A stretch of 64,000 nucleotides of DNA from Campylobacterales bacterium (GCA_050252455.1 JBFWKW010000001.1:161151-225150); one strand, 5' to 3'; positions 224 to 26,537 are shown, counted from the stretch's first letter. The notes: a model not told the origin generated them from the letters alone. Numbers and translations are program-made.

Positions 224-817
224 ATGCAAGTAACCGAGAGTTCAAAATATCAATCATATATGATGAATATAAAAGCGTCTTTGAATGTAGGCGACGAGTC
301 CATAGTCGATAAAAACGGCTTAAGCGACGAAGCAAAAGAGAAAATAAAAAACGGTGAATTATCCGCAAAATCACTCTCAAATTCATATTTGTTTGAGTTT
401 AGCTTGACCGTAGAGAGCTATTCGAGTACATCGTTTGAAGCGCAAAACGGCATATTTGATATCAATAAAGTAAAGAGCCTAACGAAAAATTTGGAGCTTG
501 ACAAACTCGGCTACAAAGGCAAACCCATAGGCGATTTGACACCCGATGAAGCAAAAGAGCTTGTCGGCGAGGACGGGTTTTTTGGTGTCTCAAAAACATC
601 GGATAGGCTTGCAGACTTTGTTATTGCCGGAGGCGGCGACAATATCGATAAGTTAAAATCAGGAAGAGAGGGGATAATAAAAGGCTTCAAAGATGCGGAA
701 GCGCTGTGGGGTGAAAAACTCCCCGATATATCCTATGAAACCCTAGATAAAGCGCTTGAAAAAATAGATAAAAGAATAGAGGAGCTAGGCGGCAAAGCCT
801 TAGACGTTCAGGCCTAG
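224..817 (+). CDS. hypothetical protein (no family recognised)
   Basis: Long ORF. The track start at 218 is TTG; the ATG at 224 lies 6 nt after AAAGGA. No motif I can name. Confidence 0.55.
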   Translation: MQVTESSKYQSYMMNIKASLNVGDESIVDKNGLSDEAKEKIKNGELSAKSLSNSYLFEFSLTVESYSSTSFEAQNGIFDINKVKSLTKNLELDKLGYKGKPIGDLTPDEAKELVGEDGFFGVSKTSDRLADFVIAGGGDNIDKLKSGREGIIKGFKDAEALWGEKLPDISYETLDKALEKIDKRIEELGGKALDVQA

Positions 818-1635
818 CCTAGCGTCTTTACAAGCTCCTCGGCTATCTCTTTGTAATATGCTTTGTACTCTTCATCCGCATGAGCAACAGGCGGCGTGCC
901 CTCGTCGCTAAGTTCCCTTATTTGCATAAGAAGCGGTATTTGCCCAAGCAGTTTAACGCCGTAGTTTGCGGCAAGCATCTCACCCCCACCGCTCCCGAAG
1001 ATATCATATCTAGCTTTTGTATCCGGCGTTACAAAATAGCTCATATTTTCTACTATTCCGGCTATCGGCACTTTGATGTCTTGAAACATCCGTATCGCAC
1101 GACTCACATCATCAGTTGCCACCGCTTGCGGAGTAGTCACTAGTATGCCCGCCGATATTTTCATCTCTTGAGCGGTAGTGAGCTGTATATCGCCAGTCCC
1201 CGGGGGCATATCTATAACAAAATAATCAAGCTCGCCCCACTCCACATCCTCAATGAGTTGAACAAGAGCGCTTACCGCCACGGAGCTCCTCCATACAAGC
1301 GGCGTATCCGGTGTCGGAGTAGTGATGCCGACCGACATTATCTTGACTCCATAGTTTTCACTAGGGATTATCTTGTCATTTGCGCCCCATTTGAGCGTCT
1401 CATGTCTGATATTTAGAAGCCTTGGAATATCGGGGCCGTATATGTCGGCATCAAGAATACCCACTTTTTTGCCTAGCTGCGCAAGCGCTACGGCAAGATT
1501 AGCGCTTACCGTACTTTTGCCTACGCCGCCCTTGCCGCTTGTGACGGCTATAACGTGCTTCGCAAACTTTGCCCTATCGTTTGGTTTTTCAAAAGTGCCG
1601 TATGTAAGCGGTTTTTTAGCTTGAGACGGATTCAT
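814..1635 (-). CDS. Mrp/NBP35/ApbC-family P-loop ATPase (cysteine-free variant)
   Basis: Deviant Walker A VTSGKGGVGKST, DADIYGP, and ENMSYF...DIFG block typical of Mrp/ApbC. The usual CxxC in that block reads VTPDT and the whole protein has no Cys. ATG preceded by AGAGGTG. Confidence 0.85.
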   Translation of the reverse strand: MNPSQAKKPLTYGTFEKPNDRAKFAKHVIAVTSGKGGVGKSTVSANLAVALAQLGKKVGILDADIYGPDIPRLLNIRHETLKWGANDKIIPSENYGVKIMSVGITTPTPDTPLVWRSSVAVSALVQLIEDVEWGELDYFVIDMPPGTGDIQLTTAQEMKISAGILVTTPQAVATDDVSRAIRMFQDIKVPIAGIVENMSYFVTPDTKARYDIFGSGGGEMLAANYGVKLLGQIPLLMQIRELSDEGTPPVAHADEEYKAYYKEIAEELVKTLG

Positions 1636-2014
1636 TTTGCACCTCTTTTATGGCATTCTCTATTTTTCTTATGGCGCGCTTTGCTTTTATCGTCCACCCG
1701 CTCGTAGCGTCCTCTGCTTTTGGGAAATTATTTGCAAGCTCTTCATATACGACAAGTCTGCTTTCCATCAATTTTTTGATAACTTCCAGAGCTTCGACCA
1801 AACGCCCGTTCTCTTTTGCTACTTTTAGTAACTCACCGAACATTTTATGGTTATCTGTCAGCTTTATCTCTATACCCATCTTTTCGGATATACTCTTTAG
1901 CTCTGCATTGGTTATATATATACCGCTATAGTCGACCCCTAGAAGTTCATATAAGTAGAACCCCAAAGAGCTGGAAATTAAATTTTTATTATCATCAATA
2001 TTAGAAATATTCAT
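1616..2014 (-). CDS. hypothetical protein
   Basis: 132-aa ORF with normal composition. Its 3' end overlaps the mrp-like start by 20 nt (same strand, probable operon). Confidence 0.5.
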   Translation of the reverse strand: MNISNIDDNKNLISSSLGFYLYELLGVDYSGIYITNAELKSISEKMGIEIKLTDNHKMFGELLKVAKENGRLVEALEVIKKLMESRLVVYEELANNFPKAEDATSGWTIKAKRAIRKIENAIKEVQNESVSS

Positions 2015-2281
2015 AATAAGTCTCGCTTACAATTTGGCATTTTTTATAAAAAATCATCTTAACTAAAACATTATGAAAATACAAATAAATAGCTGTGATT
2101 TAAGCTATCCGAGCCTCCCCTTGCAAGCTTTTTTTATGGTGTTACTTATACTTATTTAAATAAAAATAATAATAACTTTAGTTAATACAATTAAGACTTC
2201 ATTAAGATAAGTTTACTTAAAATTTATTCCCTTGCAAAAAGCAAAAATTAAAAGTCAAGAAGAGCAATAAAAGGAGCGTTT

Positions 2282-3202
2282 ATGAGGAAGCTACTGGCAT
2301 CACTTTGCCTATTTTCTTCGGTTGCCGCTATCTCTGCACTGGCCGATGATATAACGATATCGGCCAAAGAAGCAAAAGAATTGGTAGGCAAACCGGGAGT
2401 CGTGTTTGTAAGCGGCGATAATGCGGACGTTTACGGACTTAATCACGTAGAGGGCTCTATGAATATGGACGCTCACCACCTTCACCACTCTGATATAACG
2501 GGACATTTGCACTGTGCTCCGCTTTATATGTGCGTTGAAGAGGCGGAACAGTTTATAGGTTCAAAAGGTATCGACAACGATACGCTTGTAATAGCTTATG
2601 ACGACTTCAAAGGTCCAAATGCTTCCGGTGTTTGGCATTTTTTCAAAAGCTACGGACACAATAAAGTAAAAATAGTAGACGGCGGCATAACACAACTGAA
2701 AAATGCAGGTGTAAAAATAGCCAAAGGCGCCGAACCAAAAGTAGCTGCAAAAACTTTCAAAATCGATCCTAAAAAAATCAATTACGACATAATAGTATCC
2801 AAAGAAGATATGCTAAAAGCCGTTAAGGACATTGAAGCAAACGGCGATAAATCAAAATATATGATTATCGATACAAGAAGAATCGAGGAAATTATAGGCG
2901 CCACAAAGCTTGACAACGTTGCACGCGGCGGGCACGTACCTAACGCCAAATTCATGGAGTGGACAAACTTTAGCGATGCGGCAAAAAAACTCTCTTATAA
3001 AACCGAAGACGAAATGAAGGCGGCTTTGGAAAAATTTGGCATCAGCAAAGACAAAACTATCTATACGTATTGCCACGTTGGAGCGGGAAGAGGCTCATAT
3101 ATAGCTACCGTGCTTGAAAAACTAGGCTATAAAAACGTGAAAGTCTATACCGGCTCATGGGACGAGTGGGGTAACGACTGGAACATGCCGATAAGACGAT
3201 GA
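2282..3202 (+). CDS. secreted tandem-rhodanese sulfurtransferase
   Basis: AAGGAG RBS. Signal peptide MRKLLASLCLFSSVAAISALA. Two rhodanese-like halves; C-terminal half carries the active-site loop CHVGAGRGS. Its stop overlaps an ATG of the next gene (ATGA at 3199-3202). Confidence 0.85.
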   Translation: MRKLLASLCLFSSVAAISALADDITISAKEAKELVGKPGVVFVSGDNADVYGLNHVEGSMNMDAHHLHHSDITGHLHCAPLYMCVEEAEQFIGSKGIDNDTLVIAYDDFKGPNASGVWHFFKSYGHNKVKIVDGGITQLKNAGVKIAKGAEPKVAAKTFKIDPKKINYDIIVSKEDMLKAVKDIEANGDKSKYMIIDTRRIEEIIGATKLDNVARGGHVPNAKFMEWTNFSDAAKKLSYKTEDEMKAALEKFGISKDKTIYTYCHVGAGRGSYIATVLEKLGYKNVKVYTGSWDEWGNDWNMPIRR

Positions 3203-3216
3203 GGGAGAAAGTAATA

Positions 3217-6096
3217 ATGGTAAAAAATAGAAGAGACTTTTTAAAAGCTTCGGGTCTAACGGCAGCACTAGTAGCCGGACAAGGTTCACTGTTTGCAAAA
3301 ACAAACGTAACTAAAGTCGAAAATGCAAAAGAGGCTTATCCTAATGCTAGCATGACGGAAAACCTATACAGAAATGAGTTTGCTTTCACTTACGGCAAAA
3401 AAGAAGAGCATGGTTTTGCATACCACTGCGTTAACTGTCAAGGTAACTGTGCGTGGGAAATCTGGTCAAACAACGGTGTTGTAACCAGAGAAAACCAATC
3501 CGCAAGATATCCGATAATCAACCCAAGCATCCCTGACTTCAACCCAAGGGGCTGTAACAAAGGTGTTGAGCACTCTCAGGTAATGTACGAAAAAGACAGA
3601 ATCCTCTACCCGATGAAAAGAATGGGCAAAAGAGGCGAAGGTAAATGGAAAAGAATCAGCTGGGATGAGGCAACTCAGGAAATAGCTCAAAAACTATACG
3701 ACACAATGATAGACCCTAAAAAAGGTCCCGGCGCAATCACGGTTCATGCCGGTACAGGTCTTTTGACGGAAGGTAGAAGGGGCGGACCTCTTAGATTCTC
3801 CACTCAGCTAGGCGCGGTAAGAATCTATCCTGCTTCATATCTGGGCGACATGTTCTCGGGTGCTGCGGTAGCTTACGGCGAAGGTAACATGGGCTGCACT
3901 TACGACTTTATGTATGGCGTAAACGTAGCCATTATGTGGGGTGCAAATCCATCTGCAACAAGAATACCTGACGCTCACTTCGTATGGGAAGGCAAATACA
4001 ACGGCGCTAAAATCGTTGTTATTACCCCTGAATTCAATGCTTCTGCATCAAGAGCGCACCTATGGGTACCGATCAAACCGGGTACGGACAACTACCTTGC
4101 GATGAGCATCATCCATGAGCTAATCAGCAAAAAACTTTATATGCCGCAAGCGGTAAAAACATACACAGACCTTCCTTTCCTTGTAAGAGTCGATAACAAA
4201 AAACTTCTAAGAAGAAGCGATATCGAGCATGCAAAAGACGACAAACAGCACCATAAGTTTGAAGAAGAGTTCTACACTTGGAATACAAAAACAAACTCTA
4301 TCGCGCCAATGCCGGGAAGCCACGGGAGCGACCTCTCAACCCTAAGACTAAAAGACAAAGGCTACGATATAGACCCTGCTCTTGAAGGTACTTGGGATGT
4401 CAAACTTCACGACGGCAAAACTGTAAAAGTAACAACTGTTTTTGAACTACTAAAAGTTGAAGCGGCCAAATTTACGGCTGAAAATACTCAAAAAATGACG
4501 GGTGTACACCCTTCTATAGTTGAAGAGCTGGCACGTGACATCGCAAAAGAAAACGTAGTAGAAATAACTACCGGCTTCTCTCTAAACAAATATTTCAACG
4601 GCATCCTAAACATCTGGAATATCGCTTCAATATGCGGTCTTACAGGTAGATACGGCCCTAGAGGCGGTCTAAATACCGAAAATGAATTCCAACTTTCCGG
4701 CCTAGAGACGCTATCGGGTCACGCAGGCAAGTACCAAGCAAGATTCGGCTCAGGCTTCTTTGGCGAGTTTATGTTCGGTAACGGTATGAAAGACTTTGAT
4801 AGATACTTCTCAGACGCAGACCTAAAAAGATCGCAAGGTATTGAGAAAAAAGAGTACAAAGCGATTATCGAGCAGATGGTAAAAGACGGTAAAGCGTTTG
4901 CCAACGATCCGAAAAAAGCGAAAAAAGCAAAACCGTTCTGGATGCCTGAAGTAGCGCTTTTGGTTGCCGACTCAAGATTTAGAAGAAACAAAGGTACTAC
5001 TTATAGAGAAGAATTCCTCAAGCTAACTAAATACTTTGCGTATGTAGACTATCGCATGAGCGAAACTGCAATATACGCAGACATCCTTCTTCCGGCAAAA
5101 TCTCACTACGAGGTATTTGACCTTAGAAGCTCACCTGGATACCACAGATTTACGAACCTTGCCCACCCTGTAGCAAACTTGAAACCTGTAGGCGAAGCAA
5201 AAGACGAGTGGAGCATATTTGAACTTCTATCGCTAAAACTTCAAGAAATAGCAAAAAAAGGGCCTGTACAAAAAGTAAAAGACCCAAGCTATACGAGAGA
5301 CGGCGTCAGAGAACTTGATAAGTTCCATGATGAATATACAAATCACGATGAAGAATCGGAAGGTCTACTTGAACCGTATCTTGGAAACGACAAACTAGCT
5401 GTAGAAGCAGCTCTTGATAAGTGTGAGCAGTATAGCCCGTACACTATAGAGAAAATGAAAAAATCAGGCGGCTTTCTCGTCCTAAACGAAAAAGCGGCTC
5501 AAACATCGCCTCTATATGCAGACAGACCGTACAATTCATGGGAAGATCAAATGTTTAAATTTGAGAAGTTCCACACACTAAGCGGTAGACAAACATTCTA
5601 TGTTGACCACGATATGTGGATTAAACTGGGAGTTACGGTCAATACGGCAAGAGAGAATATCGCCCCTGTAAGCAAAGCGTTCCCGTTCACAATGCTAACG
5701 CCGCACGCTAGATGGTCGATTCACGCGAACTATAAAAACTCTAAGTTCCTAATGAGACTTCAAAGAGGCAAGCCTTGGATTGCAATCAATGATAAAGTTG
5801 CAAAAATCAAGGGAATCAAAGACGGTGACGACGTAAGAATCTATAACAACATAGGGCAGTTCTTCGCGATGGCTAAAGTATCACACTCCGCGCCGATGGA
5901 TTCACTAGTAATCGAGGACGGCTGGGAACCGAATATGTTTAAAGGAATGAGAGGACCGAACGACGTAGTTCCTACCTCGCTGAACCTGCTTGAGATGGCA
6001 GACAACTGGGGACACCTAAAATTCGGTGGTCTTTGGGACGGTAACCAATACGCATACGATGCGGCCGTAAACATTGAAAAAGCTAAAAAAGCTTGA
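3217..6096 (+). CDS. molybdopterin oxidoreductase catalytic (alpha) subunit, NarG/SerA/PcrA/EbdA-like (type II DMSO reductase family), Tat-exported
   Basis: Twin-arginine signal NRRDFLKASGLTAALVAG. FS0 motif HCVNCQGNCAW...PRGCNKG (H-x3-C-x3-C...C). About 960 aa. ATG 3217 lies 9 nt after GGAG; alternative ATG at 3199. Confidence 0.9.
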   Translation: MVKNRRDFLKASGLTAALVAGQGSLFAKTNVTKVENAKEAYPNASMTENLYRNEFAFTYGKKEEHGFAYHCVNCQGNCAWEIWSNNGVVTRENQSARYPIINPSIPDFNPRGCNKGVEHSQVMYEKDRILYPMKRMGKRGEGKWKRISWDEATQEIAQKLYDTMIDPKKGPGAITVHAGTGLLTEGRRGGPLRFSTQLGAVRIYPASYLGDMFSGAAVAYGEGNMGCTYDFMYGVNVAIMWGANPSATRIPDAHFVWEGKYNGAKIVVITPEFNASASRAHLWVPIKPGTDNYLAMSIIHELISKKLYMPQAVKTYTDLPFLVRVDNKKLLRRSDIEHAKDDKQHHKFEEEFYTWNTKTNSIAPMPGSHGSDLSTLRLKDKGYDIDPALEGTWDVKLHDGKTVKVTTVFELLKVEAAKFTAENTQKMTGVHPSIVEELARDIAKENVVEITTGFSLNKYFNGILNIWNIASICGLTGRYGPRGGLNTENEFQLSGLETLSGHAGKYQARFGSGFFGEFMFGNGMKDFDRYFSDADLKRSQGIEKKEYKAIIEQMVKDGKAFANDPKKAKKAKPFWMPEVALLVADSRFRRNKGTTYREEFLKLTKYFAYVDYRMSETAIYADILLPAKSHYEVFDLRSSPGYHRFTNLAHPVANLKPVGEAKDEWSIFELLSLKLQEIAKKGPVQKVKDPSYTRDGVRELDKFHDEYTNHDEESEGLLEPYLGNDKLAVEAALDKCEQYSPYTIEKMKKSGGFLVLNEKAAQTSPLYADRPYNSWEDQMFKFEKFHTLSGRQTFYVDHDMWIKLGVTVNTARENIAPVSKAFPFTMLTPHARWSIHANYKNSKFLMRLQRGKPWIAINDKVAKIKGIKDGDDVRIYNNIGQFFAMAKVSHSAPMDSLVIEDGWEPNMFKGMRGPNDVVPTSLNLLEMADNWGHLKFGGLWDGNQYAYDAAVNIEKAKKA

Positions 6097-6113
6097 GAGC
6101 AGGAGAATAATAT

Positions 6114-7199
6114 ATGTCAGAAAATGTAACAACTAAAAGACAGTTAGCGATGGTCATGGACCTAAACAAATGTATCGGCTGTCAAACTTGTACCGTTGCC
6201 TGCAAAACGCAATGGACAAATAGAAACGGAAGAGATTATATGTACTGGAATAACGTCGAGACGTTTCCAGGTGTGGGCTATCCTAAAAACTGGCAGACAT
6301 CAGGCGGCGGATTTGACAATGAGGGCAATCTAAAAGAGGGTGTAATCCCTGAAATAGAAACAGGTTACGGTACGCCATGGGATTTTAACCACGACGAACT
6401 AGCCAAGGGCGTTGAATTTAAATCCAACGTCGCCCCTATCTGGGGACCAAACTGGGATGAAGACCAAGGTGCGGGCAACTTCCCGTCCGACAACTATTTC
6501 TTCTACATCCCAAGACTTTGCAACCACTGCGATAATCCAGGATGTCTTGCGGCGTGCCCAAGAGATGCGATATTCAAAAGAAGTCAAGACGGCGTAGTTC
6601 TTGTCGACCAAGACAGATGCCAAGGTTATAGATTTTGTATAGCGGGTTGCCCTTACAAAAAAATCTATTTCAACCCAAAAATTTCAAAATCAGAAAAATG
6701 TATTTTCTGTTTCCCACGCGTTGAAAAAGGTCTTCCAACCGCTTGTGCACAACAATGCGTAGGTAGAATCAGATTTTTAGGATTCCTAGATGACGAAGAG
6801 GGTCAAGTATACAAACTTGTCAAAAAATACAAAGTTGCTCTTCCATTAAGACCTGACGCAAATACCGGAGCAAACGTATACTATGTGCCGCCTGTAGCCG
6901 GACCGCTCAAATTTGACGCAAACGGCAAGCCTATTCCTGGTAGCGATAGGGTTCCTGCAGAGCAGCTAGAAGCGCTATTTGGCAAGGAAGTACACGCGGC
7001 AATCAAAACAATAAAAGACGAAATGGAAAAAAGAAAAGCTAGCGGTAAATCTGAGCTTCTCGACCTTCTAATCGCATACAAACACTCTGATATGTTCAGA
7101 CTGGATGCGGGATATTATGCGCATCACAACAACTCGCTAAAACCTGTAGACCACAGATACGATGCGGGTAAATTCACATCATTTAAGGCGGTGCACTAA
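6114..7199 (+). CDS. iron-sulfur (beta) subunit, NarH/SerB-like, 4 clusters
   Basis: CIGCQTCTVAC, CNHCDNPGCLAACP, CQGYRFCIAGCP (aromatic residue at the 3Fe-4S position), CIFC...CAQQC. No signal peptide, so probably a Tat hitch-hiker. Confidence 0.9.
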   Translation: MSENVTTKRQLAMVMDLNKCIGCQTCTVACKTQWTNRNGRDYMYWNNVETFPGVGYPKNWQTSGGGFDNEGNLKEGVIPEIETGYGTPWDFNHDELAKGVEFKSNVAPIWGPNWDEDQGAGNFPSDNYFFYIPRLCNHCDNPGCLAACPRDAIFKRSQDGVVLVDQDRCQGYRFCIAGCPYKKIYFNPKISKSEKCIFCFPRVEKGLPTACAQQCVGRIRFLGFLDDEEGQVYKLVKKYKVALPLRPDANTGANVYYVPPVAGPLKFDANGKPIPGSDRVPAEQLEALFGKEVHAAIKTIKDEMEKRKASGKSELLDLLIAYKHSDMFRLDAGYYAHHNNSLKPVDHRYDAGKFTSFKAVH

Positions 7200-8368
7200 T
7201 GAATAAAACTGTTAAGCTACTCACACTTACGGCGCTTGCAGGCATTAGCCTTACCGCCGCCGAATCGCTAACAGCGGTAAAAGCAGATAAACTAGACGCA
7301 TCTAAAGTAAAACTTGAAAGCGTAATGCTATACCCGCAAACGACTATCGGCAACAACGATAAAGACGCTACCGAGAAAATGAAAGGGCTAAAAGCCCTTG
7401 AAGCCAAAGCCGGCGTAGCCGTCAGCGGCAAAGAGATGATGGTTGTCGTAAAATGGAAAGACGCCACAAACTCAAAACAAAGTGCAACAAGCACAAAACT
7501 ATTCGGTGATAGCGTAGCGATACAATTCCCTGCGGCTTGTATGGAGGCGGACAAACTTCCATACATCGGAATGGGAAGCGAAGGTAGACAAGTAACCGTG
7601 CTTTTGCAAAAAAATGCCGATGCAATATATCCGGCTAGCGAAAAAGCCGACGTAACAATGCAACAAGCAAAACAAAATCTAAACCTATTCGGTGAAGAAC
7701 TTAAGAAAAAAGAAGCTGCGCAAAAAGCACTTAGCGGCAAATACGCAAAAGTTTTCGTATCTGAGGGCTTTAGATCTATGACCGAGGCAAGAGATGCCAA
7801 AGGCTACGATATGTCTATGAGCTACAAAGGTGGTGAGTGGACGGCGGTATTTAAAAAACCTCTTAACGACGATTACTCAAAATCTTGCGACGCAACGCCT
7901 ATGGCTATAGCTATTTGGGACGGCGCAAAAGACGGCAGAAACGGCAACAAATGGCTTTCAGGCTGGACTCCGATTAATGTTACCGGAAGCGCAAAAGCAA
8001 AAGCAGATATAGCAAAAATCACGGAGAAATCAAAAGGTAACGTAGCAAACGGTAAAAAACTTGCTGCAGACAACTGTGCCTCTTGCCACACTATGGGTGA
8101 TGCGAAAGCCCCTATGGCATACATGGCACCAGACCTTTCAAATATCGGTGGATATGCGACGGCGGGATACCTAAAAGAGTCTATCCTAAACCCAAATGCA
8201 GCGATAGTGCCTGGATATAACAAAAACGCGCATCCGGCAGGCGTTTGGTACAACGTAGACGATAAAGGCGCTAGAACTTCTACAATGCCTGCGTTTGACT
8301 ATCTAAAACCAAACGAAATTGACGATATAGTAGCGTATCTACAAACTCTAAAAGCGGGGGTTAAATAA
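7199..8368 (+). CDS. gamma subunit: EB_dh-like heme-b domain fused to C-terminal class I cytochrome c
   Basis: Signal peptide. PYIGMG and AIWDGAKDGRNGNKWLSGW blocks as in EbdC/SerC/DdhC-type gamma subunits. C-terminal CASCH plus distal TMPAF. TAATG overlap with beta. Confidence 0.85.
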   Translation: MNKTVKLLTLTALAGISLTAAESLTAVKADKLDASKVKLESVMLYPQTTIGNNDKDATEKMKGLKALEAKAGVAVSGKEMMVVVKWKDATNSKQSATSTKLFGDSVAIQFPAACMEADKLPYIGMGSEGRQVTVLLQKNADAIYPASEKADVTMQQAKQNLNLFGEELKKKEAAQKALSGKYAKVFVSEGFRSMTEARDAKGYDMSMSYKGGEWTAVFKKPLNDDYSKSCDATPMAIAIWDGAKDGRNGNKWLSGWTPINVTGSAKAKADIAKITEKSKGNVANGKKLAADNCASCHTMGDAKAPMAYMAPDLSNIGGYATAGYLKESILNPNAAIVPGYNKNAHPAGVWYNVDDKGARTSTMPAFDYLKPNEIDDIVAYLQTLKAGVK

Positions 8369-8763
8369 TGAAAAAAATACTACTTGCATCATTATTTGCG
8401 GGGCTTATTTCTAGTTCCGTATTTGCCGCTACGACAGCAGCCGAGGCTGAGGATATCAAGCCTATGGCGGGTGAAGTAGAAAAAAAAGGTGTTTTGGCAA
8501 CTGAAGAGTGTATCAAAAAAGGGCAATTCAAAGATTGCAAACTTGACACTACGGTTAACAGTCCGCTAGCTTTGTTTGTTCATAGCGAAGGGGTAACGTA
8601 CAAACTCGATACGGCAAACGTAGCGCTAAGAGATATGGACGGCGGTATAGGCAAAAACAACGTAACCATAATAGGGACACTTGGAAAAGACAATGTAATC
8701 AAAATGAGGGGATACAAAGCTCCTCCGCCTGAAGCAAAATCATTCTTCAAAGGCTGCCTCTAA
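8368..8763 (+). CDS. small secreted protein of unknown function, translationally coupled to gamma
   Basis: Signal peptide MKKILLASLFAGLISSSVFA. 131 aa with 3 Cys. TAATG overlap with the gamma stop. Confidence 0.6.
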   Translation: MKKILLASLFAGLISSSVFAATTAAEAEDIKPMAGEVEKKGVLATEECIKKGQFKDCKLDTTVNSPLALFVHSEGVTYKLDTANVALRDMDGGIGKNNVTIIGTLGKDNVIKMRGYKAPPPEAKSFFKGCL

Positions 8764-8773
8764 AATTCTTTAT

Positions 8774-8799
8774 ACAAAGGGGTCTCAAAGCCCCTTTGT
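8774..8799 (+). terminator. intra-operon stem-loop (attenuator/processing-site candidate)
   Basis: ACAAAGGGG-tctcaaag-CCCCTTTGT: perfect 9-bp stem with no following U-tract. Confidence 0.3.
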
Positions 8800-8840
8800 C
8801 CTATCCTTACACTCACTTTTTTCTCTAAGGTATCATCAAT

Positions 8841-9395
8841 ATGGACAATAAGCAAAGAGCTTTTATATATGCGTTTATGTCAACTGTTTTTTCCGATAAA
8901 CTCTCGAAAAAAGGGATTGAAGATTTAAAAAATAATCCTGATTTTTTAGATTTAATTGGAGAGAATGCAAAACGATATTTTGAAGAAAATGATATAGATA
9001 CGCTTGATGAAGAGTTGAACATAGACTTTACGAGCGCATTTTTGGCCAACTCCCACCCCGTAGAATCCTCAATAACCGATGCAAAGCATCAAATATCTAC
9101 CGGTCTTGAAAACCCCGTAATGAGCTTTTATATAGAAAGCGGTTTTGACGTAAATCTAAACAATACAAACCTACTGACCCCAGACCATATAGCTATAGAG
9201 CTCGGATTTATGCAAAATTTGGCGTTAAGCGAAGACATCAAGACACAAAAAGAGTTTATGCTAAAACATATACTCAAATGGATGATTCCATATTTTATAG
9301 GGGCAAAATCTTTGGTTGAAACTCCTTTTTATCTTGATTTCTTAGATTTTGCGACAGACTTCTTGCTCTCAGACTACGAGGCTCTAAATGTCTGA
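8841..9395 (+). CDS. TorD/NarJ-family redox-enzyme maturation chaperone (delta)
   Basis: 184 aa, cytoplasmic. TPDHIAIELGFMQ motif and the overall N-terminal Y..LS..F / C-terminal FY pattern of the NarJ/TorD family. Confidence 0.8.
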   Translation: MDNKQRAFIYAFMSTVFSDKLSKKGIEDLKNNPDFLDLIGENAKRYFEENDIDTLDEELNIDFTSAFLANSHPVESSITDAKHQISTGLENPVMSFYIESGFDVNLNNTNLLTPDHIAIELGFMQNLALSEDIKTQKEFMLKHILKWMIPYFIGAKSLVETPFYLDFLDFATDFLLSDYEALNV

Positions 9396-10467
9396 TTTTA
9401 GCCTCAATGTTGACACTCTAAAATGTCTCAGACAAGATTATGCCCACAATGAATGCAATATATGCATAGCGGCTTGTCCGGAGAAGGCCGTGGATGTCAA
9501 AAGAGCCAAAATAGCCATATCCGAAGATATCTGTACCCTTTGCCACGCCTGTGTCGGAGTATGCCCTACGGAGGCTATAGAATCTAGCAAATTTGACTCG
9601 AATTTATTTATAGCCAAAGAGATAGCCTTTGAACAAAACGAACTAAAACAAAAGCTTATCGGCGAAAAACTGACTTTGTCTTGCAAAGAACTGGGTGTGT
9701 GCCTTTCGGTATTTTCGTCTGAACACTTAATCACCCTTGCAATCAAAAGCTCAAGGATAATAGCGATAGATGTGAGCCCTTGCGCTGAATGCGACTTGAA
9801 CAAACAAGGAAAACTAAAGTCAATCATCGATACTAATATCAATGAGTCCACTAGCTTTTTGGATGAATTTGCAGATAAAAAAATAGAAATAAATACGCAA
9901 AAAAAGGTCGATAGAAGAGATTTTTTTAAAACTATATTCAAACGCACCGCAAACGTCGTAGATGAGATAAAAGAAGAGGGGCAAAGTAGGCCAAAAACAA
10001 AACTCCCGCTAAAAAGGATTTTGCTTAAAAATACCGTTAAGGATATCTTGGAGGAGAGCAATAGATTTGTCTTTGCAAACTATTCTTTTAGCGTCACAAA
10101 AACAATCAACAAAGCCTGTACAAACTGCAAAAGCTGCGTGGAGTTTTGTCCCACAAATGCGCTTTTTTATTCAAACGATTTTTCAAAAATATACTTTCAA
10201 AGCGGAAAATGCACGGATTGCGCCATATGCAACGATATATGTGAAGTAAATGCATTTGAAGACGGCTTTGAGCACGATATGGCAATGTTTGCTTTCGATA
10301 AGGCAAAAATAGCAATAGAACATGACCTAAAAGTATGTAAATCATGCAAAATGGCATTTGCGTCCAAAGAAGGCGAGGAGGAGTGTCCAAACTGCGTAGC
10401 GTATCAAAAAGATTTTGCACATATGTTTATGACCGCTGAAGAGCTAGAGGCAATGGGAAGAGGGTAG
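9388..10467 (+). CDS. multi-cluster 4Fe-4S ferredoxin-domain protein with C-terminal zinc ribbon
   Basis: CNICIAACP, CTLCHACVGVCP, CTNCKSCVEFCP, CTDCAICNDIC, then CKSC...CPNC. Overlaps the chaperone gene by 8 nt. Confidence 0.8.
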   Translation: MSDFSLNVDTLKCLRQDYAHNECNICIAACPEKAVDVKRAKIAISEDICTLCHACVGVCPTEAIESSKFDSNLFIAKEIAFEQNELKQKLIGEKLTLSCKELGVCLSVFSSEHLITLAIKSSRIIAIDVSPCAECDLNKQGKLKSIIDTNINESTSFLDEFADKKIEINTQKKVDRRDFFKTIFKRTANVVDEIKEEGQSRPKTKLPLKRILLKNTVKDILEESNRFVFANYSFSVTKTINKACTNCKSCVEFCPTNALFYSNDFSKIYFQSGKCTDCAICNDICEVNAFEDGFEHDMAMFAFDKAKIAIEHDLKVCKSCKMAFASKEGEEECPNCVAYQKDFAHMFMTAEELEAMGRG

Positions 10468-10571: not shown

Positions 10572-10961
10572 TTAAGAGGTTTTAGAAAACTTATCGGAGT
10601 CTATCTCTATTACCGTGTGGACATTCCCGCGCGGCTCAAAATCAAAAGTGAGTTTCATCCATTTTGGAGCAAGTTTGGAGTAAAGGGTATCAAACACTTC
10701 ATTGGCTACATTTTCGTGCGAAATATGCCTATTTCTGAACGAATTAACGTATAGTTTAATAGCTTTTAATTCTACTACCCACTTATCCGGAGTATATTCG
10801 AGATATATTGTCCCAAAATCTGGATAACCGCTCCTAGGGCACAAGGCGGTAAACTCCGGCAGAGTAATTTTGATTACATAGTTTTTTGAATGCTCGTTGG
10901 GCCAAATTTCAAGGTCTTTTGAGACGTCAAACTCGGCTACTATCTTCTCTCCGTACTTCAC
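10572..10961 (-). CDS. queF: NADPH-dependent 7-cyano-7-deazaguanine reductase
   Basis: 129 aa. LPEFTALCPRSGYPDFG catalytic-Cys block and HISHE motif of type I QueF. GTG start shares 1 nt with the gyrB stop. Confidence 0.9.
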   Translation of the reverse strand: MKYGEKIVAEFDVSKDLEIWPNEHSKNYVIKITLPEFTALCPRSGYPDFGTIYLEYTPDKWVVELKAIKLYVNSFRNRHISHENVANEVFDTLYSKLAPKWMKLTFDFEPRGNVHTVIEIDSDKFSKTS

Positions 10962-13273
10962 TATACGTCCAAGTGTTTAACGTCTTTTGCGTGTTCTTCG
11001 ATATATTTTCGTCTAGGCTCGACTTCATCGCCCATAAACAGCGTAAATATACCGTCTGCATCGCTGATATTCTCGACCATTACTTTTACGAGTCTCCTGT
11101 TTTGTGGATTCATCGTAGTCTCCCAAAGCTGCTCGGGGTTCATCTCACCGAGACCTTTATATCTTTGGATATATGCCCCTTTTTTAGCTGCGTCTTCAAC
11201 CGCCGAGAGTACCTCAAACACATCTTTGCCGCCAAGGAGTGCGAGATTTTTCTCTTTTAGCTTGTTGTATATGTGTATCGCCTCTGCAAACAAGTGGTTT
11301 GTGAAGAGGTTATCGTCTATTATAATCTCCTCAAGACCTGCCGCCGTTTGGACAAATAGATGTATTTTTTCTTCATCTAGCGTTTTAGAGAGGATATTAA
11401 ACCCTATCTTTTTGATGTAGGCGTCAATGTCGGCAAAAAGAGCGTCGTTGTCAAGCGCCAAAAGCTCCTCATTTTCGATAAGTCTTTTAACGACCTCTAC
11501 AAGTGAGTAACGTTTTTTGAGCTCTTCTAGTATGTTTTTGTAATACGCCGTGACTCTTAGTATCTCTTTTATATCTTTATAGTCTTTTTCGTCGGCGCCT
11601 AGCGATTCAATGCCGTTTTCAATAAGAAAATCGCTAAGGGCGTTTGAGTCTTTGAGATATATCTCTTTTTTCCCTTTTTTGTATCTATAAAGCGGCGGTT
11701 GGGCTATATATACGTTTCCGTTGTGTATTAGCGGATTTAGGAAACGATAGAAGAACGTTAGAAGAAGCGTTTGAATATGGCTTCCGTCAACGTCGGCATC
11801 CGTCATAATGATTAGTTTGCCGTATCTTAGCTTCTCGGGGTCAAATTCATCGCCGATACCACAACCAAGAGCGGTAATGATATTTTTGATTTCATCCGAC
11901 TTTAGGATTTTCTCTAGTCCCGATTTTTCAACGTTTAGGATTTTTCCTTTTAGAGGGAGTATTGCCTGAAATACCCTGTTTCTGCCTTGCTTCGCACTTC
12001 CCCCCGCAGAGTCGCCCTCCACCAGATATAGCTCGGTAATAGCCGAATCTTTGCTTTGACAATCTGCAAGCTTGCCCGGAAGAGTTCCAACAGTCATCGA
12101 CTCTTTTTTACGGGTCAAATCCCTGGCTTTTTTGGCAGCTTCTCTACCTTTTGCGGCAAGAAGAGCTTTATTCATAATAGCTCTAGCTTCTATCGGATTT
12201 TCTTCAAAGTACTTAACTAGTTTTTCATATGCTAGTTTTTGTACAAGCGGACGAACATACGAGCTTCCCAGTTTACCTTTTGTTTGACCTTCAAACTGCG
12301 GCTCAGGGACGCGGACGGAGATTATCGCAACAAGACCCTCTCTGATGTCGTCACCCGTAACTTTTGTATCTTTTTCTCTGGCGTTTGCATTTGCCTCGAC
12401 ATATGCGGTAATTGCTCTTGTCAGACCCGCTCTAAAGCCGCTTTCGTGCGTACCGCCGTCGCCTGTTTTGATGTTATTGACGAAACTTAGTACTTTCTCA
12501 TCATAACTTTCGTTATAAAGTAGTGCGATATCGGCCTCTATATCTTCTAGCTTATCGCTAAAAGAGACTACTTTCGTTAGTGCCGTTCTTGTGCTTATAT
12601 CTTCGACAAATTGCGCGATACCGCCTTCAAATTTATAAACCTCTTTTACGCCGCTTCTTTCATCGGTTAATGTAATCGAGATTCTAGGATTTAGGTATGC
12701 AAGTTCTTTAAATCTTTTTGCAAGTATCTCAAATTGAAAATCTACGGTTTCAAATATTGTGCCATCAGGCCAAAACTCTACAATCGTACCGTTTTTCTTT
12801 GTGTCGCCGGTAATTTCAAGAACGTTTTGAGGGATACCTTTCTCAAAATCTTGCTCGTGAATTTTGCCGTTTTTGTGGATAGTAACATGTAGTTTTGTCG
12901 AAAGAGCATTAACTACCGAAATACCGACTCCGTGGAGACCGCCGGAAACTTTGTATGTATCTTTGTCAAACTTTCCACCTGCGTGAAGCACTGTAAGAAC
13001 AACGGTTGCCGCAGATATTCCCTCTGTCGGATGAATGTCTACCGGAATACCCCTACCGTTATCTTTTACGATTGCAGAGCCTGATTTTGTTAGCGTAACC
13101 TCGATAGTATCGCAGTATCCTGCCATAGATTCGTCGATGGAGTTGTCAACCGCTTCGTAAATAAGATGATGAAGACCGCCGATGCTGGTGTCGCCTATAT
13201 ACATACCCGGTCTTTTTCTGACCGCTTCCAAACCTTTTAAAACTTTAATATTACCGGCGCCGTATTCGCTCAT
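10961..13273 (-). CDS. gyrB: DNA gyrase subunit B
   Basis: 770 aa. YGAGNIKVLKGLEAVRKRPGMYIGD, GGLHGVG, EGDSAGGSAKQGR, PLKGKILNV and other canonical GyrB blocks. Confidence 0.97.
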   Translation of the reverse strand: MSEYGAGNIKVLKGLEAVRKRPGMYIGDTSIGGLHHLIYEAVDNSIDESMAGYCDTIEVTLTKSGSAIVKDNGRGIPVDIHPTEGISAATVVLTVLHAGGKFDKDTYKVSGGLHGVGISVVNALSTKLHVTIHKNGKIHEQDFEKGIPQNVLEITGDTKKNGTIVEFWPDGTIFETVDFQFEILAKRFKELAYLNPRISITLTDERSGVKEVYKFEGGIAQFVEDISTRTALTKVVSFSDKLEDIEADIALLYNESYDEKVLSFVNNIKTGDGGTHESGFRAGLTRAITAYVEANANAREKDTKVTGDDIREGLVAIISVRVPEPQFEGQTKGKLGSSYVRPLVQKLAYEKLVKYFEENPIEARAIMNKALLAAKGREAAKKARDLTRKKESMTVGTLPGKLADCQSKDSAITELYLVEGDSAGGSAKQGRNRVFQAILPLKGKILNVEKSGLEKILKSDEIKNIITALGCGIGDEFDPEKLRYGKLIIMTDADVDGSHIQTLLLTFFYRFLNPLIHNGNVYIAQPPLYRYKKGKKEIYLKDSNALSDFLIENGIESLGADEKDYKDIKEILRVTAYYKNILEELKKRYSLVEVVKRLIENEELLALDNDALFADIDAYIKKIGFNILSKTLDEEKIHLFVQTAAGLEEIIIDDNLFTNHLFAEAIHIYNKLKEKNLALLGGKDVFEVLSAVEDAAKKGAYIQRYKGLGEMNPEQLWETTMNPQNRRLVKVMVENISDADGIFTLFMGDEVEPRRKYIEEHAKDVKHLDV

Positions 13274-13318
13274 GAAACCTCTTTTACTACTTTGTTGCTA
13301 TTGTGTTTTGGTTATTAA

Positions 13319-14386
13319 TTATAAAAATATAGGCATTACTATAGTTATAAAATTGTCGCTTTTTAGTTCAAACGGCATATTCGGCTCGTTAAATCCTGCC
13401 GTAAACTCTTTTGAATCAATGCTAGATAGAAAATCAAGTATAAATCTTGAGTTAAAAGCTATTTGATATTCGCTTTCTACACTAGAGACAAATTCAACTT
13501 CCGTTTTTGCCTCCATATTTTCCTCAGACAAGCTTTCAAATATAATTTTATCTCTCATAAAAGTCATTTTTATCTCGTTTGAGATATTGCTTATTTGTTT
13601 GATAGCTTCGATGATTTTATCTTTTTGAAGAGTTTGAACGTATTTTAGTTCTTTTGGCAAAATCCTGTGATAATCAGGGAATTTTCCGTTAATTAGTTTT
13701 GTAAAGAACAAATATTGTTTTGTTTTGATAACTAGGTAGTTTTGGCTATAGAACATCTCTACGTCATCAAAAAATAGTTTTCCTATCTCTTGAATAGCTT
13801 TTTTAGGAATGATGATAGATAGCTCTTCTTTGTTTTGCTCGTCTAGTTGAACTATGGCTAGTCTTTTTGTATCGGTAGATACTATGTTTACGCCGCCTGT
13901 TTTTATGTCAAGTAGTGCGCCGTTTAGTTCGTATTTAGGATTATTGTTATCTATCGCAGGAGTGATTTTTTTGAATGCGCCTATTAATTTTACGGAGTTA
14001 AGACCAATTTTTGGAAGATGCTCATATTCAGGAAATTTAGGAAACTCTTTTGCATCAAATGTAGGCATTTTGAGCTTAGAGCCTTTTTGTTTTACGGTTA
14101 TGTTATTTTCGGAGTACTCTACAGTTATTTCTTCATCTTTTAGATTTCTTACATAATCGGCTATTTTTTTGCCGTTAGCAGTAGCAAATCCTTCTTCAAT
14201 TATATTTACATCTTCGTTTGTTATCTTAAGACCGATTTCATTATCGGTTCCTCTAAGAGTTAGTACTCCATCTTTTGCTTCTATGTAAACATGAGATGTT
14301 ATTTGGCTGTTATCTTTTTTTTCGATAAAAGGGATGATATTTGAGAGCATCTGCTCAAAGATCGTTTTGTTAACCGTAATTTTCAT
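13319..14386 (-). CDS. dnaN: DNA polymerase III beta sliding clamp
   Basis: Position between dnaA and gyrB, about 355 aa, three-domain clamp-like pattern. ATG 14386 lies 5 nt after AAGGAG; the track GTG at 14392 abuts the RBS. Confidence 0.93.
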   Translation of the reverse strand: MKITVNKTIFEQMLSNIIPFIEKKDNSQITSHVYIEAKDGVLTLRGTDNEIGLKITNEDVNIIEEGFATANGKKIADYVRNLKDEEITVEYSENNITVKQKGSKLKMPTFDAKEFPKFPEYEHLPKIGLNSVKLIGAFKKITPAIDNNNPKYELNGALLDIKTGGVNIVSTDTKRLAIVQLDEQNKEELSIIIPKKAIQEIGKLFFDDVEMFYSQNYLVIKTKQYLFFTKLINGKFPDYHRILPKELKYVQTLQKDKIIEAIKQISNISNEIKMTFMRDKIIFESLSEENMEAKTEVEFVSSVESEYQIAFNSRFILDFLSSIDSKEFTAGFNEPNMPFELKSDNFITIVMPIFL

Positions 14387-14522
14387 CTTCACTCCTTCTT
14401 ATTATTAAGAAATTTTAGTAGTAGTATTAGTATGGCGTGTTTAAGTGAAAAACTTTTGTCAGCGCCGTCTTATAAAGCCTAAAAACAATTTGTTTATTAT
14501 CCTTATTTTTCACTTAATTCAC
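14387..14522. promoter_or_regulatory. dnaA-dnaN intergenic DnaA-box-like cluster plus AT-rich tract
   Basis: TTCAC-core 9-mers: AGTGAAAAA (14444-14452, minus orientation), TTTTTCACT (14506-14514), TAATTCACT (14515-14523). AT-rich run at 14400-14435. Confidence 0.45.
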
Positions 14523-15851
14523 TTAAACTTCGTTTTTAATCTTTATTTTGTTTTTTAACTCTTCCAATTTTACTTCAAAATCTCTATCGTTTTTGATAGT
14601 TTCGTTGATTTTTTTGATAGAGTGGCTAACTGCCGTATGGTCTTTCATCCCAAAATAAGTTGCGATAATAGGCATTGAGTTTGGCGTTAGATTTCTAGCC
14701 AAATAAATAACTATTCTTCTTGCGTTTACTATTGACGTACTTCTTGATTTTGAGCGGATTTCGCTAGGCTTGATATTTAGCTCTTTTGACACTATCTCTA
14801 CGATATGGTCTATCGTAATATTTTCCCTTGTCTCTCTGAGCTGGTCTTTTAGGACATTTTTTGCAAATTCAAGGCTAATTTCTTGCCCCATCATCTTGGC
14901 AAATGCGTTTAGTTTGATGATAACACCCTCTATCTCTCTGATACTCTCACCGAGCGTTGCCGCTATATAGCCTACTACTTCGGAGTTTAGGTGTATACCG
15001 TTTAGCTCACATTTTTTGTTTACGATAGCTATTTTGGTCTCAAGCTCAGGCGGTGCGATGTCGGCGATAAGTCCCGATTCAAAGCGACTTTTTAGTCTCG
15101 CCTCAAGGCCTCCTATTTGTTTTGGATGTTTGTCCGAGGTCATTACTATCTGTTTGCCGTTTGATTGCAGTTCGTTGAAGGTGTGAAAAAACTCCTCTTG
15201 AGTCCCCTCTTTGTTGGACAAAAACTGTACATCGTCTATAAGCAGGGCATCGCAATTTCTATATTTTTCACGAAATCTATCCATCGTTTGGTTGCGCAAA
15301 TGCGATGTAAAATCGTTCATAAACTGCTCAATCGTGGCGTATATGACATTTTTACCATCACTCGTGATTTTGTTGCCGATGGCTTGCAAAAGGTGCGTTT
15401 TGCCCAGTCCCACACCACCGTAGATAAAAAGAGGATTGTATAGTTTGCCCGGTTTTTCGGCTACGGATATTGCCGCCGTGTGGGCAAATTTGTTGGAGGA
15501 GCCTACGACAAAACTATCAAAAGTCCATGAGGGATTAAGTATGGTGCTTTTACTTTTTTGAGAGATGGATATCGCATTGTCAAATTTTGCCGCCTCTTTT
15601 TTACTTTTTTTTGCGGCGCCGACGGCTACTTTGACCTCGGGCTTGATGCCTGTTTGGAGTTCAAAAAGGTGTGCTATTTTTGGACCGTATTTTGATTCTA
15701 CCCACTTAGCTACAAAAGGATTTGCAGCTTTGAGAATTACAAGGTCTGATTTGGATGCGTCCTCGTCAAATACGAGGCCTACCAAATAGTTTTCGTATTC
15801 GACCTCGGAGAGTTCCGCTTTAAGAAGTTTTCGGATAGTATCAAAAATCAT
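14523..15851 (-). CDS. dnaA: chromosomal replication initiator DnaA
   Basis: 442 aa. Walker A GGVGLGKTHLLQAIG, LLIDDVQFL, and C-terminal DNA-binding block HTAVSHSIKKI. Confidence 0.97.
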   Translation of the reverse strand: MIFDTIRKLLKAELSEVEYENYLVGLVFDEDASKSDLVILKAANPFVAKWVESKYGPKIAHLFELQTGIKPEVKVAVGAAKKSKKEAAKFDNAISISQKSKSTILNPSWTFDSFVVGSSNKFAHTAAISVAEKPGKLYNPLFIYGGVGLGKTHLLQAIGNKITSDGKNVIYATIEQFMNDFTSHLRNQTMDRFREKYRNCDALLIDDVQFLSNKEGTQEEFFHTFNELQSNGKQIVMTSDKHPKQIGGLEARLKSRFESGLIADIAPPELETKIAIVNKKCELNGIHLNSEVVGYIAATLGESIREIEGVIIKLNAFAKMMGQEISLEFAKNVLKDQLRETRENITIDHIVEIVSKELNIKPSEIRSKSRSTSIVNARRIVIYLARNLTPNSMPIIATYFGMKDHTAVSHSIKKINETIKNDRDFEVKLEELKNKIKIKNEV

Positions 15852-26461: not shown

Positions 26462-26493
26462 TGCTGGATCCTTTTTTAGATTTTTTTGTTAAT

Positions 26494-26510
26494 AAGCAAC
26501 TATTATTCCG
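26494..26510 (-). promoter_or_regulatory. sigma54 (RpoN) promoter of flgE
   Basis: Minus-strand CGGAATAATAGTTGCTT: GG-N10-GC with the TTGCTT -12 element, about 35 nt upstream of the ATG. RBS AAGGA follows. Confidence 0.6.
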
Positions 26511-26537
26511 ACTAAGCGTGGTTTACTCACTATTTAC

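Follow-up and report, generated by a model that had tools for sequence, protein, structure and literature searches.

What does an exported molybdenum enzyme act on when its gene is accompanied by those for a secreted rhodanese and for a small secreted protein with a conserved C-terminal tail? The question is raised by a gene cluster at positions 2282-10467 of a 64,000-nucleotide stretch from a Campylobacterales bacterium (JBFWKW010000001.1:161151-225150; hereafter, the window), which an earlier note, made from the sequence alone, had described as an orphan operon for a NarG/SerA/PcrA-type enzyme. As predicted from its sequence, the locus encodes a periplasmic type II molybdenum enzyme exported by the twin-arginine translocation (Tat) system, a rhodanese, the tail protein, and four cytoplasmic helpers. 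Our answer is a tentative one, held with somewhat less than even confidence: the tail protein may be a swinging-arm carrier that, once loaded by the rhodanese, brings sulfane sulfur to the molybdenum site, where it would be oxidized. The exported components, including a catalytic subunit of the molybdenum-bis(pyranopterin guanine dinucleotide) (Mo-bisPGD) type, are the following.

2282-3202, plus strand: secreted tandem-domain rhodanese sulfurtransferase, 306 residues (Pfam Rhodanese in two stretches, 94.5 bits)
3199-6096, plus strand: alpha, Tat-exported Mo-bisPGD catalytic subunit, 965 residues (Pfam Molybdopterin and Molydop_binding; RRDFLK Tat motif)
6114-7199, plus strand: beta subunit, 361 residues (TIGR03478, 503 bits; cut-off, 481)
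7199-8368, plus strand: gamma subunit with signal peptide, 389 residues (EB_dh at residues 50-251, Cytochrom_C at residues 282-385)
8368-8763, plus strand: secreted protein of a new family, 131 residues (signal peptide, Cys48/Cys57 pair, APPPE stalk, C-terminal KSFFKGCL)

Tat export is predicted for alpha, with beta as its passenger, and general secretory signals are predicted on the rhodanese, gamma, and the 131-residue protein. Pfam and NCBIfam concur with the earlier domain calls for every gene. The coordinates and junctions given at that time also stand, and the count of eight plus-strand genes is corrected to seven: the open reading frame (ORF) list of the window has seven coupled genes spanning 2282-10467, whose junctions, read base by base, are ATGA (3199-3202), TAATG (7197-7201 and 8366-8370), and ATGTCTGA (9388-9395). 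The ATGA overlap is uncertain because the true start of alpha may be Met7 (3217), many relatives aligning only from residue 7-11.

Conservation of the locus in two bacterial lineages

Far from being an orphan, the locus is common and syntenic over Campylobacterota, and it is not rare. At least 120 cluster representatives of alpha are found at 65-82% identity, with named sources in Sulfurovaceae, Sulfurimonadaceae, Sulfuricurvum, Nitrosophilus alvini, N. kaiyonis, and Sulfurospirillum arcachonense. Scanning species-representative genomes recovered 46 Campylobacterota loci; in every one of the 46, the rhodanese gene immediately precedes alpha, which bears out the proposed rhodanese-alpha linkage, and the genes for beta, gamma, the 131-residue protein, a chaperone, and a ferredoxin are in the same order wherever the contig suffices. 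A complete locus is present in a metagenome-assembled genome of Nitratiruptor (L015). Two other loci may have assembly problems: the alpha and beta matches of L043 (9443-13094) are in pieces separated by gaps of 120-200 bases (masked or interrupted), and L012 (1378-5439) has alpha and beta in one long ORF.

Composition and synteny give no support to recent horizontal acquisition, and the suggestion that the cluster is an acquired module is not sustained. The G+C content of the locus is 0.425, compared to 0.437 for the window. Close relatives have the locus at the same position by queF-gyrB, and both the locus and its divergent partner genes persist across families; the downstream order queF-gyrB-dnaN-dnaA is common only to the closest relatives.

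The same components recur in a second lineage, comprising 14 high-G+C loci that exact-sequence look-up assigns to Candidatus Muproteobacteria and Sulfuricaulis (sulfur-oxidizing Gammaproteobacteria). Here the gene order is TsuA/YeeE-DsrE fusion, selenocysteine form of the tail protein, tandem rhodanese, TlpA/ResA-like protein, alpha, beta, and gamma. The fusion gene (L064, 4423-5979, 518 residues, with homologues in nine loci) joins a TsuA/YeeE-like thiosulfate-transporter domain to DsrE/TusD and is directly upstream of the tail-protein gene, and a TlpA/ResA-like thiol-disulfide oxidoreductase is encoded between the rhodanese and alpha. Identity to the window proteins is 31-35% for the rhodanese, 46% for the Tat-exported alpha, and 58-61% for beta; the gamma subunit has an EB_dh domain followed by CTVCH. 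Because the trio is kept in two distant lineages despite the reshuffling of genes, gene content offers strong evidence for a predicted joint function of the rhodanese, the Cys- or selenocysteine-tailed protein, and an alpha-beta-gamma enzyme bearing hemes b and c. The full-text literature that was searched, with subscription journals mostly outside it, contained no description of the locus or of the tail-protein family and none of a type II enzyme linked to a rhodanese.

The tail of the 131-residue protein

Profile searches that found EB_dh and Cytochrom_C in gamma matched no family in the 131-residue protein. Pfam, NCBIfam, and PDB sequence searches gave no match, and these searches together with Foldseek (best E = 0.03) detected no homology to SoxY, DsrC, TusA, or any known family. 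The family is small: only 64 clusters were found when 1.84 billion representatives were searched with a profile. The homologues in 38 loci are 31-45% identical overall, and all end in ..APPPP.KSFFKGCL. The AlphaFold model (predicted local distance difference test score, 71.5) shows a small beta-barrel, the tail being of low confidence; for this model, Foldseek returned only weak matches with oligonucleotide/oligosaccharide-binding (OB) folds, e.g., PriB, Ten1, SilF, CcmE, and RPA. Having no family match, an OB-like model, and a tail reading FFKGCL and not GGCGG, the protein is not a member of SoxY.

Variation at the tail is concentrated in a single codon. Among 63 family representatives, 35 have a sequence ending one or two residues after KGC, and four stop immediately before the Cys; the DNA of three representatives that stop there reads GGC TGA CTN TAA, corresponding to Gly-selenocysteine-Leu-stop. 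A metagenome scan with one selenocysteine-type member returned 14 more loci (G+C of 0.48-0.67), all with GKKEFFKG-TGA-CTN-stop, bringing to 17 (3 + 14) the independent loci in which TGA takes the place of the Cys codon, with a Leu codon and a stop after it. In the window, the gene is of the Cys type, with TGC at Cys130. The selenocysteine-type loci have a GC-rich hairpin 13-16 nt downstream, one pair of which is U-A in seven loci and C-G in seven. An Rfam search for a selenocysteine insertion sequence (SECIS) or other RNAs matched only two tRNAs. A hairpin after the stop codon does not alone prove a SECIS, since Cys-type loci have one too; the covarying hairpin of the selenocysteine lineage is better evidence for a putative SECIS than the presence of a hairpin. 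The position of Cys130 reads as a selenocysteine/cysteine pair across the family, with incorporation of selenium predicted, and the family is a predicted new family of selenoproteins. Such pairs are the classical mark of a redox-active nucleophile, and the TGA at a conserved Cys codon, together with the covarying hairpin, argues that the tail residue is a reactive nucleophile.

Members of the family outside the molybdenum operon directly adjoin rhodanese-domain genes (L051 and L054) or a divergent gene for an ArsR-helix-turn-helix/rhodanese regulator (L048 and L069) and, weakly, a DsrE-like gene (L055). These neighborhoods bear on an alternative that we regard as very unlikely, in which the 131-residue protein acts as a fourth subunit, structural or regulatory, or as a metal chaperone with Cys48, Cys57, His72, and Cys130 as ligands. 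All four potential ligands are conserved in the Campylobacterota set, selenocysteine can act as a metal ligand, and the model resembles the OB-fold metallochaperones SilF/CusF and CcmE, among other OB folds; but His72 is lost in distant members, the family accompanies rhodanese or DsrE genes even without a molybdenum enzyme, and the tail sits on a proline stalk and is modeled with low confidence, as a mobile arm should be.

Members P0182 and P0197 (L057, 4222-4797) have a duplicated carrier domain with a single FFKGC tail and lie near a small cytochrome c gene. One homologue was automatically named RimM, which is likely a misannotation.

The rhodanese

The catalytic Cys264 of the rhodanese is in the loop YCHVGAGR of the C-terminal domain, and the nearest solved structures are tandem thiosulfate/3-mercaptopyruvate sulfurtransferases. 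Residues C264, G267, G269, and R270 are invariant, gammaproteobacterial orthologues included, and the loop C-x-x-G-x-G-R is kept in the rhodaneses of both lineages; it is unlike either of the classical rhodanese loops, CRxGx[RT] and CG[ST]GVT. Residues 64-85 of the Campylobacterota proteins form an invariant His-rich/Cys segment (AHHLHHSD..G.M.C.PLY.C) that is absent from gammaproteobacterial orthologues and may be a metal site or a second sulfur site.

A rhodanese of this sulfurtransferase class would also suit a scheme that we consider unlikely, in which it cleaves thiosulfate to give sulfite and a persulfide, the molybdenum enzyme is a dehydrogenase that converts the free sulfite to sulfate with cytochrome c as electron acceptor, and the 131-residue protein only carries off the sulfane sulfur, outside the molybdenum site. 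The thiosulfate transporter-DsrE fusion of the gammaproteobacterial locus is consistent with this scheme, as is the odd physiology of N. alvini, which uses thiosulfate as an electron acceptor and sulfite as a sulfur source (PMC7728183). Transfer of an oxygen atom to an oxyanion, moreover, is typical of the enzyme group. However, we know of no type II enzyme that oxidizes sulfite, and the scheme leaves unexplained the translational coupling of the carrier to gamma (TAATG) as well as the long stalk and invariant eight-residue tail of the carrier.

The heme b/cytochrome c fusion in gamma

Gamma is matched by Pfam EB_dh (59.7 bits; cut-off, 33.3) and, under its cut-off, by TIGR03477 (65 bits; cut-off, 170). 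M125 (in PYIGMG) and K251 (in GNKW) are both kept without change in ClrC and in the gamma subunit of Haloferax Nar; on the pattern of EbdC, they are presumably the heme b ligand positions. The second domain has a single CASCH at residue 293, plus TSTMP, and is a class I cytochrome c. No gene of the locus matched a Sox family except for a weak SoxX-like score of this heme c domain (32 bits; cut-off, 61). The fusion, already pointed out in the earlier note, is genuine because all 38 related gammas are single ORFs (393-436 residues, with one of 479) that contain one CxxCH near residue 300-340. With a further fusion in the second lineage (L061), an assembly artifact is excluded. In Ideonella, a separate cytochrome c gene follows clrC, and the gamma fusion unites two components that cooperate there as well.

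That Ideonella arrangement favors another alternative, also unlikely in our estimate: a respiratory or detoxifying reductase, fed by cytochrome c, for a high-potential chalcogen compound (selenate, selenite, tellurite, or tetrathionate/polythionates), with the rhodanese and the Cys/selenocysteine carrier binding or trapping a reactive product or substrate. Clr and Ser, of the same group, are cytochrome c-fed reductases; thiols and selenols react readily with selenite and tetrathionate, which is established chemistry; and the rhodanese weakly matches ExtH, known from a selenite/tellurite reduction operon (55 bits; cut-off, 200). Arguing against such a reductase, alpha falls outside the Clr and Pcr clades, the sulfidic habitats of the hosts are poor in oxidants of this kind, two lineages of sulfur oxidizers keep the locus as a core feature, and its gammaproteobacterial neighbors are sulfur-relay genes.

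Phylogenetic placement of the alpha subunit

The FS0 motif of alpha (HCVNCQGNC..PRGC) aligns with that of NarG, pNarG, PcrA, ClrA, and DdhA, and D217 (YLGDMFSG) falls in the column of an Asp that is invariant in all reference sequences and that we take to be the molybdenum ligand, as in the solved structures of NarG, PcrA, and EbdA. The closest solved relatives are PcrA (395 bits), EbdA (322 bits), NarG (182 bits), and NxrA (128 bits), and identity to the window alpha is 40% for DdhA, 36% for ClrA, 32% for PcrA, 29% for pNarG, and 26% for NarG. Beta has Cys groups of 4+4+3+4, corresponding to three [4Fe-4S] clusters and a three-Cys group (C169, C175, and C179) for a [3Fe-4S] cluster.

Alpha trees were built by neighbor-joining with 200 bootstraps and few references, without SerA, EbdA, or C25dh sequences. 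Three reference alphas came from annotated plasmids (ClrA of Ideonella, pNarG of Haloferax, and NarG of E. coli); the DdhA reference is a Ddh-type protein of Rhodovulum sulfidophilum obtained in a ClrA-seeded search, and PcrA was copied by hand from a PDB alignment. The Campylobacterota alphas form one clade (100%), outside PcrA and pNarG, that lies within the Ddh/Clr group (100%) as the sister to the Ddh clade (84%). In a tree with the gammaproteobacterial alphas, these join the Campylobacterota clade (99.5%), and the two together are sister to Ddh (98%). In neither case is the window alpha nested inside the Ddh clade (bootstrap of 84-98% for the sister position).

Model scores give a similar picture. 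TIGR03479 (DMSO_red_II_alp; cut-off, 985) is the best model for the window alpha and matches it over the full length though under the cut-off, at 796 bits; the alpha of the most distant Campylobacterales locus (L049) scores 717 bits, the gammaproteobacterial alpha 974, ClrA 1347, DdhA 1424, and pNarG 1452. The EbdA equivalog model returns 350 bits against a cut-off of 2000, indicating that alpha is not EbdA. As judged from the aligned FS0 and Asp residues and from the tree, the NarG/SerA/PcrA-type assignment of the earlier note holds: alpha is placed in the type II (NarG/Ser/Clr/Ddh/Ebd-like) group as a divergent sister lineage, a clade of its own that appears to fall in none of the characterized, defined-substrate clades that the tree covered.

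Two identities can be dismissed. A membrane Nar or Nxr is contradicted by the Tat signal, the EB_dh-type gamma, and the 26% identity to NarG, and a perchlorate or chlorate reductase is contradicted by identities of 32-36%, by the position of alpha outside the Clr/Pcr clades, and by the absence of cld. Chlorite dismutase genes, reported missing before, were found neither in the window (tblastn E > 1) nor in the 46 related loci.

The sister relationship to DdhA suggests a further alternative, a Ddh-like dehydrogenase for free volatile organosulfur compounds (dimethylsulfide or methanethiol) in which the rhodanese and the small protein are accessory or protective. We judge it improbable. The gammaproteobacterial alpha is 51% identical to DdhA, and JGI annotates members as ddhA, but the Campylobacterota alpha, at 40% identity, is on a long branch and under the TIGR03479 cut-off. 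Further, neither a rhodanese nor a carrier gene belongs to the ddh operon, ddhABDC; the Rhodovulum DdhA-type protein from the ClrA-based search showed no sign of these partners; and the strict three-way linkage in two lineages points to a joint function.

Proposed mechanism and direction of the reaction

The reading that we prefer, oxidation of sulfur held on the tail of the carrier, can be laid out in steps. The rhodanese would pick up sulfane sulfur (from thiosulfate, from polysulfide or elemental sulfur [S0], or as sulfide-derived persulfide) in the form of a Cys264 persulfide and would hand it to the tail Cys or selenocysteine of the 131-residue carrier, whose flexible tail would enter the substrate funnel of alpha. 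There, a Mo(VI)=O center would put water-derived oxygen on the terminal sulfur in two-electron steps, yielding carrier-bound sulfinate or sulfonate, or free sulfite, with the carrier being regenerated. Electrons would pass along FS0-FS4 to heme b, to the fused heme c, to a soluble cytochrome c, and on to a cbb3 oxidase or to denitrification enzymes. The whole would be a functional analogue of SoxCD/SoxYZ assembled from unrelated parts. It is possible, though less likely than not, that this is the first molybdopterin-guanine-dinucleotide enzyme to act on a protein-tethered persulfide, with a Cys/selenocysteine swinging arm from a new carrier family and a dedicated periplasmic rhodanese.

That the substrate is a sulfane-sulfur species had been guessed in the earlier note, and the Cys/selenocysteine tail, the linkage of the family to rhodaneses elsewhere, and the sulfur-handling genes of the gammaproteobacterial locus all lend weight to that suggestion. 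The accompanying analogy to Sud and polysulfide reductase (Psr) of Wolinella fares less well, as it implies reduction, and a Met/Lys heme b with a class I cytochrome c argues against reduction of low-potential sulfur.

Several lines of evidence favor oxidation. The Met/Lys heme b of the type II group and class I cytochromes c have potentials near +200 to +300 mV, and oxidation is favored because these are too positive to reduce persulfide or polysulfide. It is favored also because alpha is sister to DdhA, a sulfur-oxygenating, cytochrome c-reducing dehydrogenase, and because the hosts live as sulfur oxidizers. Finally, it is favored by the reported Sox gene content of the hosts: Sulfurovum-like bins from Frasassi (including FS08-3, the source of L045) lack SoxAX, SoxB, and SoxYZ, and the Sulfuricurvum PC08-66 bin (P0107) lacks SoxCD (PMC4288042). 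The same study lists "Nar" for Sulfuricurvum, which is possibly this enzyme.

Other observations weigh against carrier-bound sulfur oxidation. Its substrate, its direction, and the entry of the tail into the active site are all inferred, and the 51% identity of the gammaproteobacterial alpha to DdhA makes a free organosulfur substrate possible. Cytochrome c-fed type II reductases exist (Clr and Ser), and the Ideonella cytochrome c gene after clrC stands alongside one of them. The OB-fold assignment of the carrier rests on weak Foldseek matches (best E = 0.03), and its tandem-duplicated members (L057/L058) have no molybdenum enzyme or rhodanese nearby. Moreover, N. alvini, which has an alpha homologue of 70% identity (P0010), grew with H2 only and not with sulfide, S0, or thiosulfate as the electron donor (PMC7728183).

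Divergent gene pair, helper genes, and hairpin

The conserved unit reaches left to 814 by way of a divergent conserved gene pair, making it a nine-gene locus (814-10467). Its remaining features are the following.

814-1635, minus strand: Mrp/ApbC/NUBPL-type P-loop iron-sulfur cluster carrier ATPase, 273 residues (Pfam ParA/NUBPL, 317 bits)
1616-2014, minus strand: predicted cytoplasmic protein without a family, 132 residues, co-conserved with the locus
8774-8799, plus strand: 10-bp hairpin (-15.4 kcal/mol, z = -4.3)
8841-9395, plus strand: TorD/NarJ-family chaperone, cytoplasmic, 184 residues (Pfam Nitrate_red_del, 39 bits)
9388-10467, plus strand: poly-ferredoxin, cytoplasmic, 359 residues (multiple 4Fe-4S motifs)

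The product of 814-1635 scores 277 bits with MrpORP and 269 bits with ApbC in NCBIfam, each under its cut-off, and is likely a cytoplasmic assembly factor. In 39 of 47 related loci, its gene occupies the same upstream, divergent position; the distant L049 is one of them and keeps the divergent mrp/132-residue pair. The 132-residue protein had no match in Pfam or NCBIfam, and 41 of the 47 loci have a homologue located between the mrp and rhodanese genes. A leucine-rich repeat variant (LRV) protein (e.g., L035, 8036-8602, minus strand, 188 residues) is encoded between the 132-residue and rhodanese genes in 31 loci, the window not being among them. The Haloferax pNar cluster also carries a HEAT-repeat gene (L052).

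The chaperone gene is kept in 35 loci, and its product scores 48 bits with TorD and 32 bits with TIGR03482 in NCBIfam, both under cut-off. The ferredoxin, kept in 33 loci, has by motif count three CxxCxxCxxxC motifs, one variant of this motif, and a C-terminal CxxC..CxxC; it is likely a maturation or redox helper resembling NapF.

The hairpin lies between the five genes whose products are exported and the two for the chaperone and the ferredoxin. In nearly all of the loci L001-L046, a strong hairpin, variable in sequence, comes after the stop codon of the 131-residue gene and before the chaperone gene. We infer that the element at 8774-8799 is likely an attenuator or mRNA-stability element. 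It may give the structural and the maturation genes different levels of expression, or it may be a vestigial SECIS.

Remainder of the window

The dnaA, dnaN, and gyrB genes are on the minus strand (10961-15851), leftward from the dnaA-ruvC intergenic region (15852-16086), where three TTATTCACA DnaA-box-like sites occur at 15861, 16033, and 16056. This region is likely oriC on sequence grounds, and the head-on orientation of the operon toward an origin near 15.9-16.06 kb, as claimed before, is plausible given the minus-strand dnaA-dnaN-gyrB and the three boxes. The orientation says nothing about acquisition.

A DUF3373 protein (33274-34941, 555 residues), whose homologues are encoded within 10 kb of the operon in 16 loci (e.g., L034, 1231-2964), may be an outer-membrane protein tied to the system or a coincidence of synteny. 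The ORF at 16567-17934 encodes 455 residues with two Thy1 (ThyX) stretches, about twice the usual length of ThyX. tRNA genes are located at 86-158 and 32349-32422, and a block of flagellar hook genes (flgE, flgD-like, and fliK) is at 24362-29930. The rest of the window is housekeeping in character, with recA, eno, dxr, tsaD, purT, an aconitase-family gene, and sensor kinases.

Significance

In sulfidic caves, vents, seeps, and aquifers, the dominant bacteria are Sulfurovum, Sulfurimonas/Sulfuricurvum-like organisms, and their relatives. How zero-valent sulfur is handled by those that lack SoxCD or the whole of Sox is relevant to sulfur deposition and acid production, the Frasassi bins being an example (PMC4288042). 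A testable candidate for that role is this conserved, abundant, and unnamed molybdenum enzyme, which comes with a dedicated sulfurtransferase and carrier. If the proposal is correct, there would be a Sox-independent periplasmic route of zero-valent sulfur oxidation in Campylobacterota and in Acidiferrobacterales-like Gammaproteobacteria, many of which, lacking SoxCD or all of Sox, have been considered unable to oxidize stored or external S0, and the chemistry of the dimethyl sulfoxide (DMSO) reductase superfamily would extend to protein-bound substrates.

Several of the current names for this enzyme are likely misannotations. Alphas are automatically labeled molybdopterin-dependent oxidoreductase, by JGI as narG/nxrA, CISM reductase, type II DMSO reductase, or ddhA, and also as serA/clrA. 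Metagenomic claims of nitrate reduction, nitrite oxidation, or dimethylsulfide oxidation in these groups may consequently be wrong.

Comparison with known systems

The nearest relative among known systems is DdhABC of R. sulfidophilum, the sister clade, which likewise has a periplasmic Tat-exported alpha with the FS0 and Asp residues, a NarH-like beta, an EB_dh gamma, and a TorD-like chaperone, and which adds oxygen to a sulfur atom, with cytochrome c as the electron acceptor. It differs from the window system in sequence (40% identity; TIGR03479 scores of 1424 bits for DdhA and 796 bits for the window alpha) and in the fusion of the window gamma to cytochrome c, as well as in the obligatory rhodanese and Cys/selenocysteine-tail neighbors of the window enzyme, whose substrate is probably protein bound and not a free thioether. 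ClrABC, SerABC, and PcrAB share the subunit plan and cofactors, and the window fusion joins what in Ideonella are separate clrC and cytochrome c genes; in contrast to those systems, the window alpha is outside the Clr and Pcr clades, at 36% identity to ClrA and 32% to PcrA, with no cld and no mobile-element context.

In Sud/PsrABC of Wolinella succinogenes, a periplasmic rhodanese-type protein supplies sulfur to a Mo-bisPGD enzyme in a member of the Campylobacterota, a pairing proposed for the window locus as well. However, Psr is quinol linked, membrane anchored, reductive, of another subfamily (PhsA/Psr-type models give the window alpha only 121 bits), and without a carrier with a reactive tail, and the high-potential heme b/heme c route of the window enzyme is unfit for polysulfide reduction. 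The carrier itself recalls DsrC/TusE and the arms of thioredoxin reductase, in which a reactive Cys or selenocysteine near the C terminus is borne on a flexible arm that ferries sulfur or electrons into the active site of a partner, but there is no relation in sequence or fold, and those proteins are cytoplasmic, whereas the 131-residue protein is secreted.

The likeness in logic is to SoxCD/SoxYZ, in which a periplasmic molybdenum enzyme with a c-type cytochrome acts on sulfur bound to a C-terminal Cys of a small carrier protein and the genes lie side by side. The proteins are unrelated: SoxC has the sulfite-oxidase fold and SoxY is an immunoglobulin-like protein ending in GGCGG, whereas the window system would pair a Mo-bisPGD enzyme with an OB-like carrier ending in FFKGC(U)L.

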